Assembly (NCBI GenBank): GCA_964016885.1
Contig: OZ024766.1
Location: forward strand, 21,886,001 to 21,950,000
Reading direction: 5' to 3'
DNA: 64,000 nt
DNA from: Eledone cirrhosa
Lineage: Eukaryota
The translations under genes were made by a program, and so were the position numbers. The notes beneath the pieces are model-generated. The model had not been told where the DNA came from. It searched no databases and was given only the letters and a program-made list of their open reading frames with translations. Shown here piece by piece: positions 2,161 through 64,000 of this stretch. Position 1 is the stretch's first letter. Every line of letters starts with the position of its first letter.

Positions 2161-4140
2161 CTAATTGATACAGAGAATGATATCAGAGAGGTATGGCTTG
2201 TCTCCTGTATGGGTATATTTGTGTGTAGTTAAATTACTTGATGCAGAGAATAATTTACCACAGATATCACAGTGGTATGGCTTGTCTCCTGTATGGATAC
2301 GTAAGTGTTTAGTTAAGGTACCACTATCAGAGAATGATTTACCACAGATATCACAGTGGTATGGCTTGTCACCTGTATGTGTACGATTGTGTCTAGTTAA
2401 GTGACTACTTTCAGAGAATGATTTACCACAGATATCACAGTGGTATGGCTTGTCACCTGTATGTGTACGTTTGTGACTAGTTAAGGTACTACTATCAGAG
2501 AATGATTTACCACAGATATCACAGTGATATGGCTCGTCTCCTGTATGTGTACGTAAGTGTTTAGTTAAGGTACCATTTTCATAGAATGATTTACCACAGA
2601 TACCACAGTCATATCGTTTGTCCCCTGTATGTATACGTTTGTGAGAAGTTAAATGATATCTTCGAGAGAATGATTTACCACAGATATCGCAGTGGTATGG
2701 TTTTTCACCTGTATGTATACGTTTGTGGCTAGTTAAGGTACTACTATCAGAGAATGATTTACCACAGATATCACAGTGGTATGGCTTGTCTCCTGTATGT
2801 ATACGTTTGTGTCTAGTTAAGTGACTACCTTGAGAGAATGATTTACCACAGATATCGCAGTGGTATGGCATGTCTCCTGTATGTGTACGTTTGTGGGAAG
2901 TTAAGTGACCACTTTGAGAGAATGATTTACCACAGATGTCACAGTGGTATGGTTTGTCTGCTGTATGTGTACGTTTGTGTATAGTTAAATTACTACTTGT
3001 AAAGAATGATTTACCGCAGATATCACAGTGGTATGGCGTGTCTCCTGTATGTATACGTTTGTGAGAAGTTAATATACTACTATCAGAGAATGAGTCCCCA
3101 CAGATATCACAGCGGTATGGCTTCTCACCTGTATGGGTACGTTTGTGTCTAGTTAAGGTACTACAAACAGAGAATGATTTACCACAGATGTTGCAGTGGT
3201 ATGGCTTGTCTCCTGTATGTGTACGTTTGTGGCAAGTTAAGTGACTACTAATAGAGAATGATTTACCACAGATATTGCAGTGGTATGGTTTCTCACCTGT
3301 ATGTATTCGTTTGTGTATAGTTAAGTTACCACTTTCAGAGAATGATTTACCACAGATATCACAGTGGTATGGCTTGTCTCCTATATGTATACGTTTGTGT
3401 CTAGTTAAGCTATTACTAACAGAGAATGATTTACCACAGATATCACAGTGGTATGGCTTGTCTCCTATATATATACGTTTGTGTTTAGTTAAGTTACTAC
3501 TTGTAAAGAAAGATTTACCACAAATATCACACTGGTATGGCTTGTCTCCTGTATGTATACGTTTATGATTAGTTAAGTTACTACTTGTAAAGAATGATTT
3601 ACCACAAATATCGCAGTGGTATGGCTTGTCTCCTGTATGTGTAAGTTTGTGGCCAGTTAAGTGACTACTAACAGAGAATGATTTACCACAGATATTGCAG
3701 TGGTATGGTTTCTCACCTGTATGTATACGTTTGTGTTTAGGTAAGCTACTACTATCAGAGAATGATTTACCACAGATATCACAGTGGTATGGCTTGTCAC
3801 CTGTATGTGTAAGTTTGTGGCGAGTTAAGGTACTACTAACAGAGAATGATTTACCACAGATATCGCAGTGGTATGGTTTCTCACCTGTATGTATACGTTT
3901 GTGGCTAGTTAAGTGACTACTACCAGAGAATGATTTACCACAGATATCGCAGTGGTATGGCTTGTCTCCTGTATGTATACGTTTGTGTTTAGTTAAGCTA
4001 CTACTAACAGAGAATGATTTACCACAGATATCGCAGTGATATGGTTTCTCTCCTCTAAAATTTGACACCTCTTCTGGAATAGCCATATCTTTAGACAATG
4101 TTTCACATTTAATCTTCTTCTCACTCAATTTAGTTTCCAT
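2161..4140 (-). CDS. C2H2 zinc-finger protein paralog 1 (659 aa, about 22 fingers, single coding exon)
   Basis: Open ORF of CxxC-x12-HxxxH units with TGEKPY/TGDKPY linkers; acceptor TTTCTTATTTCAG ~380 nt upstream of the ATG (exon starts 4523); AATAAA at 1341-1346 on the minus strand. Confidence 0.93.
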
Positions 4141-5327
4141 GTTTCTTCTTCCCTTGGCAGAATTTACAGATGTTATTCTTGTCTTATTTTATATATTATA
4201 TTCCTGAAGATATTTCTTCTGCTATATTTCCAGCAACTGATCTGTCAAGATCTGTAGATGATGCAAACTGCTTTCTGATTCAAATTTAGTTAAGATTCAA
4301 AATCATCTTGTAAATATTTCAGAGGCTGATGAAACAATACTTTTCCAAGAATTTTTCCAAGACACACAGTTCCGAGGAAATATTTCACAGTAATACTGCC
4401 ATAGATTTATATAAACAGTGTTATATGAGTTCCGTTTGAAAAGCTTTAGTCTTGAAATGATGATAAATAGAGGGGATGTATTCAAGATTAAAAAATAATT
4501 TTATCCCAATGTCATCTGATATTCTGAAATAAGAAAGAAATAGTATGAGATAATAGAGAATTCTTTAGAAACAGAGATAGATTTAACATTGGAAATTTTA
4601 TATTTCTATGTTGATAAACTGTAGATATCAACTTTCCTGTCCAGAGTTATTCTCTCCAATGTAAGCAGTGATATTCCACGATGCTCTATAAACTATATTC
4701 TTCTAACTCTTGGGAGGTCTGCTCTATAGCCTTTACTCAAGAACTTCATTCTTATATGACATTCTAACATGGTAATTGTCTGAGACCTGAGATGTGTAAC
4801 TTGACAGTTCCTTGAGTAACAGTTCTTTCTACCTGGAAGGGGAAAAGTGTTGTGTAATTGCTTGGTAACAGTCAAAGGATTCTCACACATGGCTACCCTA
4901 GGCACCCCAATAACATGACTTGTGTTAGGCTTGTAGACACAATTAGTGGGAATTTTTATTCGTAGGGCTTTCCATAATTTTAGCGCTATTTTATTTCTTT
5001 TGTTTGGTTGCCTTTCCACTCATCAACCACTTTACAGCAAGGACTGGGTGTATAGTTTTTGGCACTAGAGAGGTTATTTTAATGGTCTTAAGAGCTCATA
5101 TAGATACATATATATATATATACATATGTATAGATATTTATATACATATACATATATATAGATATTTATATATATATACATATAAATTTCACCAGAGATA
5201 GAAAACCAGAATTAGTCATTTAGTTTACATAATGAGACCCCAACCCATCCTATTTATTTTAAATGGGTGGAGTGAATTAAGAGTGGGGTGGTGGTGTAAA
5301 AAATCTGAAAATTAAATGAGGGTGGGG

Positions 5328-5712: not shown

Positions 5713-5990
5713 TACATATTTATAAATAGACACATTATACAAAATAATTATTATATACACTCACATCTATGAATGATTGAGGAAGAGCTGGTGAAACACT
5801 ATAGCAATATGTGTGTTGCACCCCTTTTTTGTTTTACCGGCTACATAGCCTGTCCGTACTCTTATATCAGATGTGTAGGTGTATTATCTTGTCTAGTATG
5901 TATAATGTATGTATGTATATATACAATATATATACACATATATATATGCAATATATATACACATATATATATGCATATATATATATATAT

Positions 5991-8437
5991 ACACTAAAAA
6001 ATAACTTACTAGAGGCGACGGATGAGGTTTGTGGCTGGAGTAAGACCTCAAGCAGGAGGAGAGTGACTTGGTGGTGGAACAATAAGGTAGATGAAGCAGT
6101 CAAGGCCAAGAGACAGGCATGGAAAGAATGGAAGAACGGGGGGAGCAGGGTACATTACATAGAGACCAAGAGGGAAGCTAGGCGACAAGTATACTTAGCT
6201 AGGAGGGAAGCAGAGGATAGAAAATTCAAGCATGTTTTACAACGTGAGGACCAGAAACAGGAGGTATTCAAGATTGCGAGGCAGTGTGTCAGAGATAGTT
6301 GTGATGTCATTGGAGAGAAGTGTATCCGGAATGATAAAGGTGAGCTTGCCCTCACAAGTGCTGAGAAGAAAGATGCATGGAAGAGTCATTATGATAGATT
6401 ACTAAATGAGGAGAATGCATGGGAAGAAGAGACCCTACCCCACGTAGACCCTATAGAGGGACCAGCAGTACAAGTCAGCGGCAGCGTAGTAAGTAAGGCA
6501 ATCAGAGATATGAAGATAGGGAAGGCAACCGGTCCATCGGGTATAGCTGCCGAGATGCTGAAGGCATCTGGGTCTGTAGGTCACACTATAACCACACGTA
6601 TCGTTAACCAGGTAATACTAGAGGGGGCCATACCAAAAGATTGGTGCAGTAGCATCATTGTCAACTGCTACAAAGGTAAAGGCGATGCACTAGATAGAGG
6701 AAACTATAGAGGTATAAAGTTGATAGACCAGGTCATGAAAGTAACAGAAAGAGTTATAGCACAGCTGATTAGGGACCGGGTGAATATAGACGAGATGCAA
6801 TTTGGGTTTGTTCCAGGGAAAGGCACCACTGATGCGCTCTTCCTTGTGAGGCAATTACAGGAAAAGTACCTAGCTAAAAGTAAGCCACTCTACTTGGCAT
6901 TTGTCGACCTTGAGAAAGCCTTTGACAGAGTTCCACGTGCAGTAATCTGGTGGGCTCTTAGAAAACTAGGAGTAGATGAATGGCTTGTGAAAGCGGTACA
7001 AGCCATGTATAGGGGAGCAGTCAGCAAAGTTAGGATTGGCAATGAGTATAGCGAGGAATTTAGCGTACAGGTTGGGGTCCACCAGGGCTCTGTTCTTAGC
7101 CCTCTCCTGTTCATCATAGTCCTGCAGGCAATAACGGAGGAGTTTAAGACCGGATGCCCATGGGAACTCCTGTATGCTGATGACCTCGCACTCATAGCTG
7201 AATCTATGGTAGAACTAGAGAATAAATTCCAAACCTGGAAGCAGGGACTAGAGAGAAAGGGCCTCAAAGTCAACATGACAAAGACTAAGGTCCTTATAAG
7301 TAGACGAGAAAACAGAACCCAGATCCCCTCAGGGAAATGGCCTTGCTCAGTATGTAGGAAAGGTGTAGGTAGGAACTCCATTCTTTGCCCCAAATGCAAA
7401 CAATGGGTACACAAGAGATGTAGCGGGATCTCAGGAAGCTTAATTAAGAATGTAGGATTCACATGCAGCAGCTGTGCTGAAACAGCAAGCAAACAGCCAC
7501 AGGAAACAAGTACCACCAATCTCTGGGAGGGCCCTGTAGAAACAGTAGACAGCTTCTGCTACCTAGGTGACCGAATTAGCAACGGAGGTGGGTGCTCAGA
7601 AAGTACAATAACTAGGGTAAGAACGGGATGGAAGAAGTTTAGGGAACTACTACCACTGCTAGCTGCAAAAGGCTTCTCCCTCAGAATGAAAGGCAGACTG
7701 TATGATGCGTGTATCCGAACAGCGATGTTGCATGGTAGTGAGACCTGGGCGCTGAAGGTGGAAGACTTACGTAGATTAGAGAGAAACGAAGCCTGCATGC
7801 TCCGATGGATGTGTAACAGTAATATACGTGAACGACAAAGCATAAATGAATTGAGAGAGAGACTGAGCATAAGAGGAATCAAATGCTGCGTGCAGGAGAG
7901 GCGGTTACGCTGGTATGGACATGTGATGCGTATGAAGGATGACAGCTGCATAAAAAGGTGCAGAGCACTAGAAGTTGATGGAAACCGCGGAGTGGGGAGA
8001 CCCAAGATGACTTGGGATGAGGTGATAAAAGCCGACCTTACCCAACTACACCTCTCAAAGTCAATGACACACGACCGTGACTTCTGGCGTCACGCAGTAA
8101 TACAGGGTACCCGACCTCCCATGGGTACATGCTGAAGCATATAAACAATATGCCCCCCCCCCCACCGCAAGGTGGTCGTGGAGGTGCCACGGCAAAAAAG
8201 CACCCAGCCCACACTGTAAAGTGGACGTGTAGGCGCCACGAAAAAGCACCCAGCACTCACTGTAAATGAGGTTGGTGTTAGGAAGGGCATCCAGCTGTAG
8301 AAATCAAGCCAGATCAGTTCCTGTATGAGCAAGGCATGGTCAGCCGACCAGACACTGCCCACAACAGGACAACCCGTCTAACCCATGCTAGCGTGGAAGA
8401 ACGGACGTAAAACGGTGATGATGATGATGATGATGAT
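5991..8437 (+). mobile_element. 5'-truncated young RTE-clade LINE (intact RT plus C-terminus, 3' UTR and (TGA)n tail) inserted in a (TA)n tract
   Basis: Stop-free ORF to 8135 with QFGF, AFVDLEKAFDRV, GVHQGSVLSP, LYADD and RRLRWYGHV; the ORF track's N-terminal ~60 aa are flanking sequence and microsatellite; no endonuclease domain; tail GATGATGATG at 8417-8437. Confidence 0.95.
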
Positions 8438-9479: not shown

Positions 9480-15584
<6,105 letters not shown>

Positions 15585-20188: not shown

Positions 20189-21547
20189 TTATGATTTCTC
20201 TACTGCATGTATAAGTTTGTGAGTAGTTAAGCTACCACTTACAGAGAATGATATACCACAGATATCACAGCAATATGGCTTGTCTCCTGTATGGGTATGT
20301 TTGTGGCTAGTTAAGGAATTACTTCGAGAGAATGATTTACCACAGATATCACAGTGGTATGGCTTGTCTCCTGTATGTGTACGTTTGTGTATAGTTAAGG
20401 TACTACTTTCAGAGAATGATTTACCACAGATATCACAGTGGAATGGCTTGTCTCCTGTATGGGTACGTTTGTGGCTAGTTAAGTTACTACTCTCAGAGAA
20501 TGATATACCACAGATATCACAGTGATATGGCTTTTCTCCTGTATGGGTACGTTTGTGTCTAGTTAAGCCACCACTTAAAGAGAATGATATACCACAGATA
20601 TCACAGTGGTATGGCTTCTCTCCTGTATGGGTATAATTGTGGCTAGTTAAGGAACTACTTCGAGAGAATGATTTACCACAGATATCACAGGGGTATGGCT
20701 TGTCTCCTGTATGTATACGATTGTGGCCAGTTAAGTTACTACTATCAGAGAATGATTTCCCACAGATATTACAGTAATATGGCTTGTCCCCTGTATGGGT
20801 ACGTTTGTGTCTAGTTAAGGCACCACTTACAGAGAATGATATACCACAAATATCACAGTGGTATGGCTTCTCTCCTGTATGTATACGATTGTGGATTCTT
20901 AAGACACTACTATCAGAGAATGATTTCCCACAAATATCACAGTGATACAGCTTTTCTCCTGTATGGTTACGTTTGTGGCTAGTTAATGTAGTACTAACAG
21001 AGAATGATTTACCACAGATATCACAGTGGTATGGCTTCTCTCCTGTATGTATACGATTGTGGCTAGTTAAGGCATTACTTTCAGAGAATGATTTACCACA
21101 GATATCACACTGATATGGCTTGTCTCCTGTATGTATACGTTTGTGGCTAGTTAAGGTAGTACTAACAGAGAATGATTTACCACAGATATCACAGTGATAT
21201 GGCTTGTCTCCTGTATGGGTACGTTTGTGTTTAGTTAAGTTAGAACTGTCAAGGAATGATTTACCACAGATATCACAGTGGTATGGCTTCTCTCCTGTGT
21301 GTATACGTTTGTGACTAATTAAGTTAGAACTGGAAAAGAATGATTTACCACAGATATCACAGTGATAAGGCTTCTCTCCTGTATGCATACGCTTGTGAAC
21401 AGTTAAGTGACTACTTCGAGAGAGTGATTTACCACAGATATCACAGTGGTATGGCTTCTTGTCTCTAATCTTTGTCATTTCACCAGGAATACTAAACACT
21501 TTTGATTGTGTTTCACATTTAATCTTCTCAGTCAATTTATTTGGCAT
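20189..21547 (-). CDS. C2H2 zinc-finger protein paralog 3 (452 aa, about 15 fingers)
   Basis: Open ORF of canonical fingers; diverged but homologous N-terminus (EKIKCET) and 5' UTR; homologous acceptor (exon starts 21875). Confidence 0.92.
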
Positions 21548-22131
21548 AATGATGTTTTCTTGAACAGAATATACAAATGTTTTCTTGTAATATTTTTTAT
21601 ATTATTCCTAAAAATATTCCTTCTTCTATATTTCCCTCAACTATGAAGATAATACAAACTTATGATTCACCCAAGGTTAGTTAAAATACAAAACCATCTC
21701 AGTGAAGAAAATAAACTCAGTTCTGAGGAAATATTTCACAGTAATTGAACTATAGATTTATATAAACAGTGTTATATAAGTTCTGTTTAGAAGGTTTTAG
21801 TCTTCAAATGACGATAAATATAGGTGATGTATCCGAGATTGAAAATAATAATTTATCCCAATGTCATCTGGTATTCTGAAATGAAAAAGAAACAGTATGA
21901 GATAATAGAGAATACTTTAGAAACAGAGATAGATTTAACATTGGAAATTTTATATTTCTATATTGATAAACTGTAGATATCAACTTTCCTGTCCAGAGTT
22001 ATTCTCTCCAAGGTAAGCAGTGATATTCCACGATGCTCTATAAACTATATTCTTCTAACTCTTGGGAGGTCTGTTCTATGGTAGTTTAGCAAAAAATTTA
22101 TTCTGGTAACATGTCAACACCGGTTTAAAAT

Positions 22132-58380: not shown

Positions 58381-58497
58381 AGTGTGTGTATATATATATA
58401 TATACACATATATACACACATGCTTATATGTATATATGAGTGTATATAATGATAATATATATTAATTATTGTTTGATTTTGTTCAGCTGCTTCGAAG

Positions 58498-58609
58498 ATG
58501 CCCAAAGATAAATACGAATCTTGCAATCCACGTAGAAATTACAGCATCATGTCTTCAGAAGATTTAGCATCAGGCAAGAAGTCAGAGTGGTATGAATTGG
58601 AGATATCAG
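58498..58609 (+). CDS. CNOT6: CCR4-NOT subunit 6 (CCR4 deadenylase), first coding exon
   Basis: MPKDKYESCNPRRNYSIMSSEDLASGKKSEWYELEISG matches the CNOT6/6L N-terminus; acceptor at 58485-58486; donor G|GTAGGT. Confidence 0.93.
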
Positions 58610-58619
58610 GTAGGTTATC

Positions 58620-59480
58620 TGTTTATGGTATAACACTGTCACTGTCTGTTTATCACACGGTCTCTCTGTCTGTTTATCACACACAGTCTCTGTCTGTTTA
58701 TCACACAGTCTATGTCTGTTTATCACACACAGTCTCTCTGTCTGTTTATCACACAGTCTCTGTCTATTTATCACACACAGTCTCTCTGTCTGTTTATCAC
58801 ACAGTCTCTCTGTGTCTGTTTATCACACAGTCTCTCTGTCTGTTTATCACACAGTCTATGTCTGTTTATCACACAGTCTATGTCTGTTTATCACACAGTC
58901 TATGTCTGTTTATCACACAGTCTCTGTCTGTTTATCACACACAGTCTCTGTCTGTTTATCACACACAGTCTCTGTCTGTTTATCACAGTCTCTGTCTGTT
59001 TATCACACAGTCTCTGTCTGTTTATCACACAGTCTCTCTGTCTGTTTATCACACAGTCTCTCTGTGTCTGTTTATCACACAGTCTCTCTGTCTGTTTATC
59101 ACACACAGTCTCTGTCTGTTTATCACACAATCTCTCTGTCTATTTATCACACAGTCTCTGTCTGTTTATCACACAGTCTCTCTGTCTGTTTATCACACAG
59201 TCTCTCTGTCTATTTATCACACAGTCTCTGTCTGTTTATCACACAGTCTCTCTGTCTGTTTATCACACAGTCTCTCTGTCTATTTATCACACAGTATCTC
59301 TGTCTGTTTATCACACACAGTCTCTCTGTCTATTTATCACACAGTCTCTGTCTGTTTATCACACAGTCTCTGTCTATTTATCACACAGTCTCTCTGTCTA
59401 TTTATCACACAGTCTCACTGTCTGTTTATGACATGGTCACTGTATGTTTATCACACAGTCTCTCTGTCTGTTTATCACAT
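58620..59480. repeat. ~22-bp minisatellite (TCTGTCTGTTTATCACACAGTC)
   Basis: Starts immediately after the CNOT6 donor. Confidence 0.92.
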
Positions 59481-60014
59481 ACTATATAGCATATCTCACA
59501 TAACATTTACATTACTCTATATATACTATTATATTTTCACTTTATCTCACATAATATCAAATCTATGAGATTTTGATGTTATTTATTTTGAGAACAATAC
59601 CTTAACATCAGTATGAGCGGCCGGTTACAGCCGGTTTGAACAGAAAGTGGTGAGAGAATTCTGGCCGGATATGTCCGGTTTAAATACTAAAGGGTTAAAG
59701 TGTTTATATTTATCTAAAAATCTTTGATCATAATTTTATGTAAGAACCTTTGTTAAGTTATGTTCCAAACACCAAATATAGTAGCGAAAATTTTTAAAGT
59801 GTTTATATTTATCTAAAAACCTTCCATCATAATTTTATGTAGGAACCTTTGTTAAGTTATGTTCCAGGCCGTGTCTTTCATTAGAAATATGTCAACGAAT
59901 GTGATAAAAACAGAAATGACATGATTACCTCCCCTTAGCTGTTAAAATCCAGCTTTAGGGCTCAAGATTTGTGGTGTATAATACATACTTATGTATGATG
60001 TATCTGTCTTATAT

Positions 60015-61345
60015 GACCCCTATTTTTCTGTGTCTCTGTCATTTCTAGGTTCCAGTATGAAGCCTGTTCCCTAAAATCTGGTCCCTTTGTCATCTAATCC
60101 CTCTATAATTATAAATAAATGTTAAATGTTGATGATGTGTCTGTCATGAGATCCCTATTTTTCTGTCTCTGTCATTTTTAGGCCCAGTATGAAGCCTCTT
60201 CCCTAAACTTTGGCCCCTTTGCCATCTAACACCTCTGTAACTCTATAATTACATATACTGAGTGTCCCCCAAAAATGTATACATATTTATTAGAATGCTG
60301 TTGAAGTGTATATACATTTTTAGGGACACCCTGTTTATGTTAATGATGTGTCTATCTCTCTAATGTGGTCCCTATTTTTCTGTGACTTCTAGGTCCAGTA
60401 CGAAACCTGTGCCCTAAATTCTGGTCCCTTCACTTCTTGATCCCTGTTTAATTCTATAATTATATATATATATCTATATATATGTTGATTATGTGTCTCT
60501 CTCTGATGTGGCCCCTATTTTTCTGTATGTCATTTCTAGGTCCAGTACGACACCTGTGCCCTAAACTCTGGTCCCTCTCTACCTCTATAATTATAAATAA
60601 ATGTTAAATGATGATTAGGTGTCTATTTATCTAATGTGGCCCCTATTTTTCTGTCTGTCATTTCTAGGTCCAGTACGACACCTGTGCCCTAAACTCTGGT
60701 CCCTCTCTACCTCTATAATTATAAATAAATGTTAAATGATGATTAGGTGTCTATTTTATCTGATGTGGCCCCTATTTTTCTTGTGTCATTTCTAGGTCCA
60801 GTACGACACCTGTGCCCTAAATTCTGCTCCCTCTCTACCCCTATAATTATAAATAAATATTAAATGATGATTAGGTGTCTATTTATCTAATGTGGCCCCT
60901 ATTTTTCTGTATGTCATTTCTAGGTCCAGTACGACACCTGTGCCCTAAATTCTGCTCCCTCTCTACCTCTATAATTATAAATAAATGTTAAATGATGATT
61001 AGGTGTCTATTTATCTAATGTGGCCCCTATTTTTCTGTATGTCATATTTCTAGGTCCAGTACGAAACCTGTGCCCTAAACTCTGGTCCCTCTCTACCTCT
61101 ATAATTATAAATAAATGTTAAATGATGATTAGGTGTCTATTTTATCTAATGTGGCCCCTATTTTTCTTGTGTCATTTCTAGGCCCAGTACGACACCTGTG
61201 CCCTAAATTCTGCTCCCTCTCTACCTCTATAATTATAAATAAATGTTAAATGATGATTAGGTGTCTATTTTATCTAATGTGGCCCCTATTTTTCTGTATG
61301 TCATTTCTAGGCCCAGTACGAAACCTGTGCCCTAAACTCTGGTCC
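60015..61345 (+). repeat. ~128-bp tandem array of duplicated CNOT6 acceptor plus exon start (9 decoys and the true site)
   Basis: CCCTATTTTTCTG..TCATTTCTAG|G(T/C)CCAGTACGA.ACCTGTGCCCTAAA repeated. Confidence 0.92.
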
Positions 61346-61574
61346 CTACGCCATCTCACCTCTCTGTACCTCAATGATAACAACCTACTGCGAATACCCC
61401 CCGACATCTCTAAACTCACCAACCTCACATATCTTGATCTGTCATCCAACAAGTTAAGGAGCTTACCGTCAGAGCTTGGTGACCTCTCTCTCATGCGTCA
61501 GCTTCTCCTCAACAACAATTTCCTGCGAAACCTACCGTTCGAACTTGGTAAATTGTTCCAGTTACAAACATTAG
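61311..61574 (+). CDS. CNOT6: CNOT6 coding exon 2 (leucine-rich repeats)
   Basis: GPVRNLCPKLWSLRHLTSLYLNDNNLLRIPPDISKLTNLTYLDLSSNKLRSLPSELG..LPFELGKLFQLQTLG; AG|..|GTGAGT. Confidence 0.95.
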
Positions 61575-61582
61575 GTGAGTAT

Positions 61583-62260
61583 CTCTTTTGTTTCTTTCCT
61601 TCGTTTCTTTCTTTGCCTTCTTCTTCTTTCCTTCGTTCCTTTCCTTCGTTTCTTTCCTTCGTTTCTTTCTTTGCCTTCTTCTTTCCTTTGTTTCTTTCCT
61701 TCGTTTCTTTCTTTGCCTTCTTCTTTTCTCCTTCGTTTCTTTCCTTCGTTTCTTTCCTTCGTTTCTTTCTTTGCCTTCTTCTTTCCTTTGTTTCTTTCCT
61801 TCGTTTCTTTCTTTGCCTTCTTCTTTTCTCCGTTTCTTTCCTTCGTTTCTTTCTTTGCCTTCTTCTTTTCTCCGTTTCTTTCCTTCGTTTCTTTCTTTAC
61901 CTTCTTTCCTTCCTTTGTTTCTTTCTTTGCCTTCTTCTTTCCTTCGTTTCTTTCTTTCCTCCGTTTCTTTTTTTTCTTTCTTTCTTTGCCTTCTTTCCTT
62001 TGTTTCTTTCTTTGCCTTCTTCTTTTTCTTTCCTTCGTTTCTTTCTTTGCCTACTTCTTCTTCTTTCCTTTGTTTCTTTCCTTCGTTTGTTTCTTTGCCT
62101 TCTTCTTTCCTTTGTTTCTTTCTTTGCCTTCTTCTTCTTTCCTTTGTTTCTTTCTTTGCCTTCTTCTTCTTTCCTTTGTTTCTTTCTTTGCCTTCTTCTT
62201 TCCTTTGTTTCTTTCTTTGCCTTCTTTCCTCCGTTTCTTTCTTTGCCTTCTTCTTCTTCA
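61583..62260. repeat. pyrimidine-rich low-complexity repeat (TTTC/TTCC/TTCG)
   Basis: Direct inspection; intronic. Confidence 0.93.
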
Positions 62261-62470: not shown

Positions 62471-62569
62471 GTCTTCAGGGTAACCCTCTATCACCGGATA
62501 TTTTAAATCGCTACAATGAACCAAATGGGACCCAAAAACTTCTCAGCTACATGTTGGATCACTTAGCAC
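62471..62569 (+). CDS. CNOT6: CNOT6 coding exon 3 (the gene continues beyond the window)
   Basis: CACAG|GLQGNPLSPDILNRYNEPNGTQKLLSYMLDHLA|GTGAGT. Confidence 0.93.
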
Positions 62570-62687
62570 GTGAGTAGTGGTGACCCCTTTTCTTTAAAAA
62601 CCCTTTAAATTTTTTTTTTTTTTTTTGATGGGTGCAGGGCTTGAGTCGTGGGTTATGGGTGGTGGCGACTTAGGGTTTGTGTTTTGT

Positions 62688-63640
62688 GGACCCTTCCGTC
62701 TTTCTTTGTCAGCTACATGTCGGTGGGTTTAGCATGTAGATGCCGGAGACCCTTAAATTTGAGGGTGAATCAGGGGTTTAGGGCTTTTTTGGTGACCCTT
62801 CGGTTGGTCTTTGTCAGCTACATGTCGGTTGGTTTAATGTGTAGATGCGGGAGACCCTTAAATTTGAGGGTGAATCAGGGGTTTAGGGCTTTTTTGGAGA
62901 CCCTTCTGTCTTTCTTTGTCAGCTACATGTCGGTGGGTTTAGCATGTAGATGCCGGAGACCCTTAAATTTGAGGGTGAATCAGGAGTTTAGGGCTTTTTT
63001 GGAGACCCTTCGGTTAGTCTTTGTCAGCTACATGTCGGTTGGTTTAATGTGTAGATGCCGGAGACCCTTAAATTTGAGGGTGAATCACGGGTTTAGGGCT
63101 TTTTTGGAGACCCTTCGGTTGGTCTTTGTCAGCTACATGTCGGTTGGTTTAATGTGTAGATGCCGGAGACCCTTAAATTTGAGGGTGAATCACGGGTTTA
63201 GGGCTTTTTTGGAGACCCTTCGGTTGGTCTTTGTCAGCTACATGTCGGTTGGTTTAATGTGTAGATGCCGGAGACCCTTAAATTTGAGGGTGAATCACGG
63301 GTTTAGGGCTTTTTTGGAGACCCTTCGGTTGGTCTTTGTCAGCTACATGTCGGTTGGTTTAATGTGTAGATGCCGGAGACCCTTAAATTTGAGGGTGAAT
63401 CAGGAGTTTAGGGCTTTTTTGGAGACCCTTCGGTTAGTCTTTGTCAGCTACATGTCGGTTGGTTTAATGTGTAGATGCCGGAGACCCTTAAATTTGAGGG
63501 TGAATCAGGGGTTTAGGGCTTTTTTGCAGTCCCTTCGGTTGGTCTTTGTCAGCTACATGTCGGTTGGTTTAATGTGTAGATGCCGGAGACCCTTAAATTT
63601 GAGGGTGAATCAAGGGTTTAGGGTTTGTGTTTGTGGACCC
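62688..63640 (+). repeat. 105-bp tandem repeat (about 9 copies) resembling the CNOT6 exon-3 3' end and donor region
   Basis: Unit contains GGAGACCC..TCAGCTACATGTCGG..TTAGCATGT versus the exon's GGGACCC..TCAGCTACATGTTGG..TTAGCAC|GT. Confidence 0.85.
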
Positions 63641-64000
63641 TTTGGCTGTCTTTCTTTTTCAGATACATATCGGATCCCTTTAATTTATATATATATGTGT
63701 GTGTGTATATATATATGTGTGTATTTATATATATGTGTGTGTGTGTGTATTTACATATATGTGTGTGTGTGTGTGTTTATATATGTGTGTATTTATATAT
63801 GTATATATGTGTGTGTGTGTATTTATATATGTATATGTGTATATATGTGTGTGTGTGTGTATATATATATGTGCATGTATATATATATATATAGACATGC
63901 TGTGTAGTGTATATATGCTATATTTAGTCTTATTAATATATCTGATGTTGATGAAATCTGCAGTTGGATCAATGCTTGGCACTGTAGTATTTAACCCTAG

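Follow-up and report, generated by a model that had tools for sequence, protein, structure and literature searches.

Tandem copies of an intron/exon boundary lying beside the true boundary have been described in amphioxus as mirage minisatellites, with cases in the globin genes BflGb6 and BflGb9, Adh3, troponin C and PGBD5 (PMC3087553, PMC3902484). According to the first of these accounts, the BflGb6 mirage repeats the 3′ end of an intron together with the 5′ part of the following exon in units of 150-160 bp, present in 3 or 6 copies, and Adh3 data together with RT-PCR suggest that splicing is not interfered with (PMC3087553); for the Adh and troponin C mirages, the second account reports that no aberrant mRNA is generated (PMC3902484). 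On the donor side, a 37-bp VNTR in intron 7 of human F7 carries pseudo-donors described as functional but silent, which its authors attribute to oriented scanning, with the most upstream site chosen, and the same report records that early experiments with duplicated sites gave opposite results (PMC1557585). In humans, variation in splicing has also been linked at many loci to the length of tandem repeats (PMC10078293).

We describe a comparable array in Eledone cirrhosa. In the window, the 64,000-nucleotide stretch of DNA that was analyzed (G000:C27:21886001-21950000 of a 3.0-Gb genome), nine head-to-tail copies of an intron end and exon start, U1 to U9, precede the LRR exon of CNOT6 at a distance of 0.41 Mb from the contig end. 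Judged by its anatomy and by the published precedents, the array is very probably a mirage-type minisatellite spanning the CNOT6 3′ splice site, whose copies are tolerated and likely ignored by the spliceosome. Like the amphioxus mirages as reported, it consists of tandem boundary copies beside the true boundary, many copies keep their splice signals, and acceptor- and donor-side forms occur. It has the same polarity as the BflGb6 mirage, with units of 128-211 bp compared with the 150-160 bp given there, and just as concerted evolution is described for BflGb6 with the edge units excluded, U4-U9 are homogenized while U1-U2 stand apart. Six of eight mirage features are present (tandem units, boundary span, intact true exon, kept signals, concerted inner units and locus specificity); the remaining two, undisturbed splicing and length instability, are those shown in amphioxus by normal splicing and length polymorphism. 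It departs from the amphioxus cases in its host, an octopod mollusc, in the housekeeping deadenylase it occupies, in its nine copies, in the AATAAA of its spacer and in the presence of three such junctions in one gene. The F7 VNTR is similar in that the edge unit holds the true splice site and several pseudo-sites are identical and potentially functional. No cephalopod or CNOT6 mirage was found in the literature searched.

CNOT6 and the anatomy of the acceptor array

The exon 3′ of the array is matched by profiles of LRR families and shares 98% identity with CNOT6 of Argonauta hians (P0010) across 87 aa. When the adjacent 100 kb of DNA is added to the window, P0010, which carries PF03372, aligns exon by exon over its residues 1-538. 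Ten coding exons form one open frame using the acceptor at 61309-61310, and this frame joins an N-terminal LRR to an EEP nuclease, the domain layout of CNOT6/CCR4. A search of the 3.0-Gb genome with one nuclease exon found a single CNOT6/CCR4 locus (1 match among 16 candidates). The nine true donors of the gene match 6-9 of the 9 positions of the 5′ splice consensus, and an acceptor-like AG at 58485-58486 suggests a putative 5′UTR exon upstream of coding exon 1.

Elsewhere in the window, the translations reveal three tandem C2H2 zinc-finger ORFs on the minus strand (2161-4188, 11815-13329 and 20189-21601) within repeated ~9-kb blocks, and a 776-codon open frame on the plus strand (5805-8135) that resembles a non-LTR retrotransposon reverse transcriptase. 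CNOT6 intron 3, which begins at window position 62570, is 23.4 kb long, and read-through of the exon 3 donor is predicted to yield a 160-aa LRR-only product. Many bilaterian CNOT6 database records are LRR-only at about 150-300 aa (among the best 120 of 301 matches, which favours longer ones); they may stem from gene models that were split, or from a short isoform that is genuine and conserved. Should a conserved control by truncation exist in CNOT6, intron 3 would be the better place to seek it.

The preliminary description of this DNA had located nine decoy AGs, the true AG and the upstream donor after 58609, and every one of these positions holds (Table 1). TRF resolves a 128-bp unit repeated 6.6 times with 95% matches (60502-61347) and a 132-bp block of 1.8 copies (59995-60240). 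Exon bases 1-60 align with the intron at a score of 72, compared with a shuffle maximum of 32 (n = 300), and the array is locus-specific rather than a dispersed repeat, with 8 of 8 matches to a 291-base query at its own locus in a DNA search (one candidate).

Table 1. Features of the CNOT6 acceptor array and its surroundings (window positions unless another locus is named)
Feature	Position	Strand	Details
Coding exon 1 of CNOT6, from ATG	58498..58609	+	donor CAG/GTAGGT, phase 1
Intron carrying the decoy array	58610-61310	+	2.7 kb
Old decoy units U1-U3	59999..60488	+	AG 60047, 60180, 60391; 8-15 differences from true site, -42..+37
Young decoy block U4-U9, 128-130 bp units	60489..61259	+	AG 60538, 60666, 60794, 60922, 61052, 61180
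True 3′ splice site	61260..61310	+	CTAAT at -37; AG 61309-61310; equals U7 over -40..-1
True LRR exon, 264 nt	61311..61574	+	strong donor TAG/GTGAGT at 61575
Coding exon 3	62471..62569	+	donor CAC/GTGAGT
Donor-side boundary array, 105 bp x9.2	62682..63653	+	resembles exon 3 end plus decayed donor; score 30
Exon 9 end copy, 60-bp x2.1	L007:8920-9060 (G000:C27 about 21,978,920-21,979,060)		past exon 9 donor

Each unit comprises about 45 intron bases, the AG and 37-58 exon bases; the copied exon segment, previously put at ~35 nt, measures 37 nt in U4-U9 and reaches 58 in U2. The AG is intact in all nine decoys and a branch-like motif in seven, no YTRAY-type branch motif being found in U1 or U2. 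Every unit from U4 to U9 carries a CTRAT that resembles a branch point, at positions -36 to -39, then a tract of 75-79% pyrimidine ending in AG, the exon bases, and then an AT-rich spacer with AATAAA and an in-frame stop, together with a weak donor, TAG/GTGTCT, that recurs in six units 79 nt past the AG. Beyond +37, the GC content of the decoy spacer is 27% compared with 45-46% in the true exon. An AATAAA ahead of the stop had been claimed for the proximal units; the hexamer is present in seven of the nine units, where GU/U-rich sequence follows it, and is missing from U2 and U3.

Splicing from 58609 to any of the nine decoys is predicted to give a premature stop after 3-22 residues. The 22-residue decoy peptide given earlier is exact in U4 and U5 and is replaced by 22-residue variants in U6-U9, while the reading frames of U1, U2 and U3 stop after 9, 3 and 19 residues, respectively. 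The amino-acid changes of the decoys are missing from both the true exon and P0010, and P0010 contains no decoy residues.

Over positions -42 to +37, U1 to U9 differ from the true site at 13, 15, 8, 5, 3, 8, 4, 3 and 6 positions. Divergence had been said to rise upstream; it is a step between U1-U3 and U4-U9 rather than a smooth gradient. In its intron half, the true acceptor shares 37-40 of 40 bases with U4-U9 and 31-32 with U1-U3, and U7 is identical to it at all 40 positions (-40 to -1). Members of U4-U9 differ from one another by 2-8 changes over their full length, or 2-9 in the comparison that sets U1-U2 apart from the remaining units by 12-20, and no two units of the array are identical.

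Authenticity and proposed origin of the array

An assembly artefact is exceedingly unlikely. The contigs available are short and the reads 150 nt long, too short to span the copy number, but every unit differs from every other by 2-20 changes. Decoy-type units and the unique spacer sequence of U2/U3 also appear in contigs from run X1, although this run is not independent if, as is possible, it is the source sample. Spacer and acceptor are further carried by a few RAD-seq reads, three from X5 and one from X6, which derive from other samples with the same species label in another study; a T occupies position +2 in both X5 reads and in the one X6 read that cover it. Over the stretch used in the comparison, 61135-61590, run X4 (kind unrecorded) yielded one 154-nt contig, 61373-61526, which lies wholly inside the exon and is uninformative on acceptor choice.

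We propose that an old local duplication would have given rise to U1-U3. Since U2 copies 58 exon bases, the original duplicated stretch presumably extended further, and part of it has probably been lost from the young unit. Recent unequal exchange may then have expanded U4-U9 and homogenized these units and the intronic side of the working acceptor, whose exon side is probably held by coding constraint. Because its intron half is closer to U4-U9 than to U1-U3, the working 3′ splice site appears to have been homogenized with the young block; it also appears to co-evolve with the array. As anatomy and the amphioxus precedents suggest, the array as a whole probably arose as a by-product of duplicated DNA and is tolerated, rather than acting as a regulator.

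Splice-site choice and competing explanations

The preliminary description had set skipping of the decoys by exon definition beside several regulatory readings, and skipping over a neutral repeat is the reading best supported by anatomy and precedent. As U7 and the true acceptor are identical across all 40 intron bases next to the exon, the choice between them would have to rest on downstream exon context, and established splicing biology suggests that exon definition picks the last AG. Only this AG precedes a complete 264-nt exon of higher GC content that ends in a strong donor; a decoy would offer its short exon segment followed by the AT-rich spacer and a weak donor, or would otherwise require an exon of 393-1526 nt. 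In engineered globin substrates with duplicated splice sites, Reed and Maniatis reportedly found in 1986 that a site at a truncated exon loses to a site at a full exon, although those experiments were reportedly done in vitro, with two sites and mammalian extract, and in these respects are unlike CNOT6. With nine AGs and seven branch-like motifs intact, simple 5′-to-3′ scanning would prefer an upstream AG, which is a point against this reading, as are the opposite results of early duplicated-site experiments (PMC1557585). Whereas the F7 donors are explained by scanning to the most upstream site (PMC1557585), the most downstream CNOT6 acceptor has to win, so scanning alone is insufficient. Masking of the decoys by RNA structure found no support over 60930-61420, where no fold exceeds that of shuffled sequences (z = 0.40). 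Any mRNA that leaked through a decoy would meet a stop near codon 60 with at least 7 later junctions downstream, and is predicted to undergo nonsense-mediated decay. A contrast between AG/GT at the decoys and AG/GC at the true site had also been drawn; it holds for seven of the nine, but fails as a rule of site choice because AG/GC is found in U2 and also in U9, which lies closest to the exon, and the GT/GC variation after the decoy AG falls on the third position of a Gly codon, where it is synonymous.

Recursive splicing had also been proposed, and the AG/GT in seven of nine decoys would speak for such (ratchet) splicing through zero-length exons. This mechanism is hardly conceivable here: the regenerated donor TAG/GTCCAG matches 4 of 9 positions of the 5′ consensus compared with 6-9 in the nine true donors, the GT sits at a synonymous codon position and is GC in U2 and U9, and the host intron is just 2.7 kb, recursive splice sites being typical of very long introns. 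Somewhat less remote, but unlikely, is a leaky sink, neutral in origin and dependent on copy number, in which the decoy-spliced share of transcripts would be lost through a premature stop and nonsense-mediated decay, through a 79-nt poison cassette using TAG/GTGTCT, or through cleavage after AATAAA, so that unit number would become a quantitative trait acting on CNOT6 dose. U4-U9 are complete acceptors, one of them equal to the true site over 40 bases; all decoys contain stops, seven of nine have AATAAA with GU/U-rich sequence, and six units share the weak donor; with a single CNOT6 locus found, dose could matter; and the human link between tandem-repeat length and splicing variation (PMC10078293) leaves the idea some probability. 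The published mirages, on the other hand, are reported without aberrant mRNA (PMC3087553, PMC3902484), and the AATAAA traces to a single event that the units inherited. In AT-rich introns the hexamer is common, occurring in 580 of 12524 intron windows of 45 nt overall, in 380 of the 2063 (18%) that are equally AT-rich, and in 592 of 4444 windows of 128 nt. The cassette donor is the best GT in the array and would bound 79-nt stop-containing exons in six units, but it matches 6 of 9 consensus positions, lacking +4A and +5G, a count equal to that of the weakest true donor; a poison cassette is possible but weak.

A further reading is a selected device, a poison or intronic-polyadenylation switch controlling the deadenylase, as had been suggested in the form of a copy-number-tunable element; we found no positive evidence for it, and it is very unlikely. 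The array is old (U1-U2 are about 17-19% diverged) and still expanding, and boundary copies are in excess at CNOT6, but the old units do not preferentially keep their signals: across U1-U3, 95 of 113 positions are retained in the acceptor half compared with 96 of 110 in the exon half (p = 0.57), neither U1 nor U2 has a YTRAY-type branch motif, and AATAAA is missing from U2 and U3. Short CNOT6 records inspected from other animals stop past LRR exon 2 or 3, or else start within sequence derived from an intron; none ends near residue 60, either among 11 sequences read or among the best 120 of 301 matches, which favor longer ones. In the literature searched, no paper brought together CNOT6, poison exons, intronic polyadenylation and autoregulation. 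A leaky or tunable role of the array would be improbable, and the more specific possibility that U4-U9 work as stacked alternative acceptors equipped with a stop and a poly(A) signal, diverting the only CCR4 transcripts in a copy-number-dependent manner, is more doubtful again.

Boundary copies elsewhere in CNOT6 and in the genome

Within CNOT6, intronic copies accompany 3 of 19 exon edges, namely the acceptor of exon 2 and the ends of exons 3 and 9 (in the 60-nt edge test, exons 5 and 6 were started a single base too far upstream). The score of the donor-side array past exon 3 was reached by 0 of 2000 shuffles, and this array is, on its sequence resemblance, a candidate second mirage within CNOT6, now decayed; the exon 9 duplication ends with a copy of the last ~25 bases of that exon. 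Two further tandem repeats, at 58642-59479 and 61587-62258, start ~10-35 bases past the donors of coding exons 1 and 2, and no copies of exon sequence were found in them.

A baseline was obtained from exon matches of seven Pfam families, for which 216 loci with 1.5-kb flanks were scanned; 14 loci with matches >450 nt, none showing a boundary copy, were dropped, leaving 202 loci and 404 edges. A search with PF03372 returned long-ORF matches that we read as LINE-type endonucleases, and these 30 loci (L015-L044) were left out. Local alignment flagged 15 edges, of which three (L107, L144 and L205) were kept, giving boundary copies at 3 of 404 edges outside CNOT6, or 0.74% (95% interval 0.15-2.2%), where an edge is the end of a profile match rather than an annotated splice site, and the edges, several of which fall in the same gene, are not fully independent. 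The kept cases comprise a donor-side array of ~20 copies at an aldehyde dehydrogenase (ALDH) exon (L107/L173; G000:C18 about 34,848,900-34,850,550, minus strand) with an 82-bp unit, 41 exon bases per unit and 19 exact donor 12-mers including the true one; a myosin exon end copied once with its donor decayed (L144:1695-1775, gene-strand); and a HECT-ligase acceptor and exon start copied once with the AG lost (L205:1241-1368, gene-strand). By its sequence, the ALDH donor array would be a cleaner F7-like case than the CNOT6 acceptor array. Among the flagged edges that were rejected, L165:26-124 reflects a whole myosin head exon duplicated 1.5 kb upstream at 81% identity, possibly a mutually exclusive pair; L054 is a borderline 23-nt copy with apparently few exon bases; and ten others are short or low-complexity matches. 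A blastn match at L186 was too short at 19 nt.

Multi-copy arrays occur at 1 of 404 survey edges (0.25%), compared with an expectation of 0.26% if local repeats arise at random, and the survey rate of boundary copies is close to that of random repeat birth. CNOT6 exceeds the other genes (3/19 versus 3/404, Fisher p = 0.0014; 2/18, p = 0.016 without the exon 2 acceptor), but its exon flanks are also 56% tandem repeat, a level reached by 3 of 202 survey loci, for which the mean is 12% and the median 4.6%. From its own repeat density, 2.2% of edges would be expected to carry a copy, a rough figure in that the arrays themselves are included, and on this expectation P = 0.008 for 3/19 and 0.059 for 2/18 without the exon 2 acceptor. 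Repeat density explains much, perhaps not all, of the excess at CNOT6.

If the best-supported reading is true, mirage minisatellites, known from lancelets, extend to cephalopods, with boundary copies at a rough frequency of about 0.7% of exon edges. With one decoy that equals the true acceptor along 40 bases, and a choice that has to fall on the last AG, the CNOT6 array offers a clean natural test of 3′ splice-site choice. Were the decoys to leak in proportion to copy number, this would be the first functional mirage found described, and if diversion by copy number proved true, a mirage minisatellite would act as a heritable dial on global mRNA decay.
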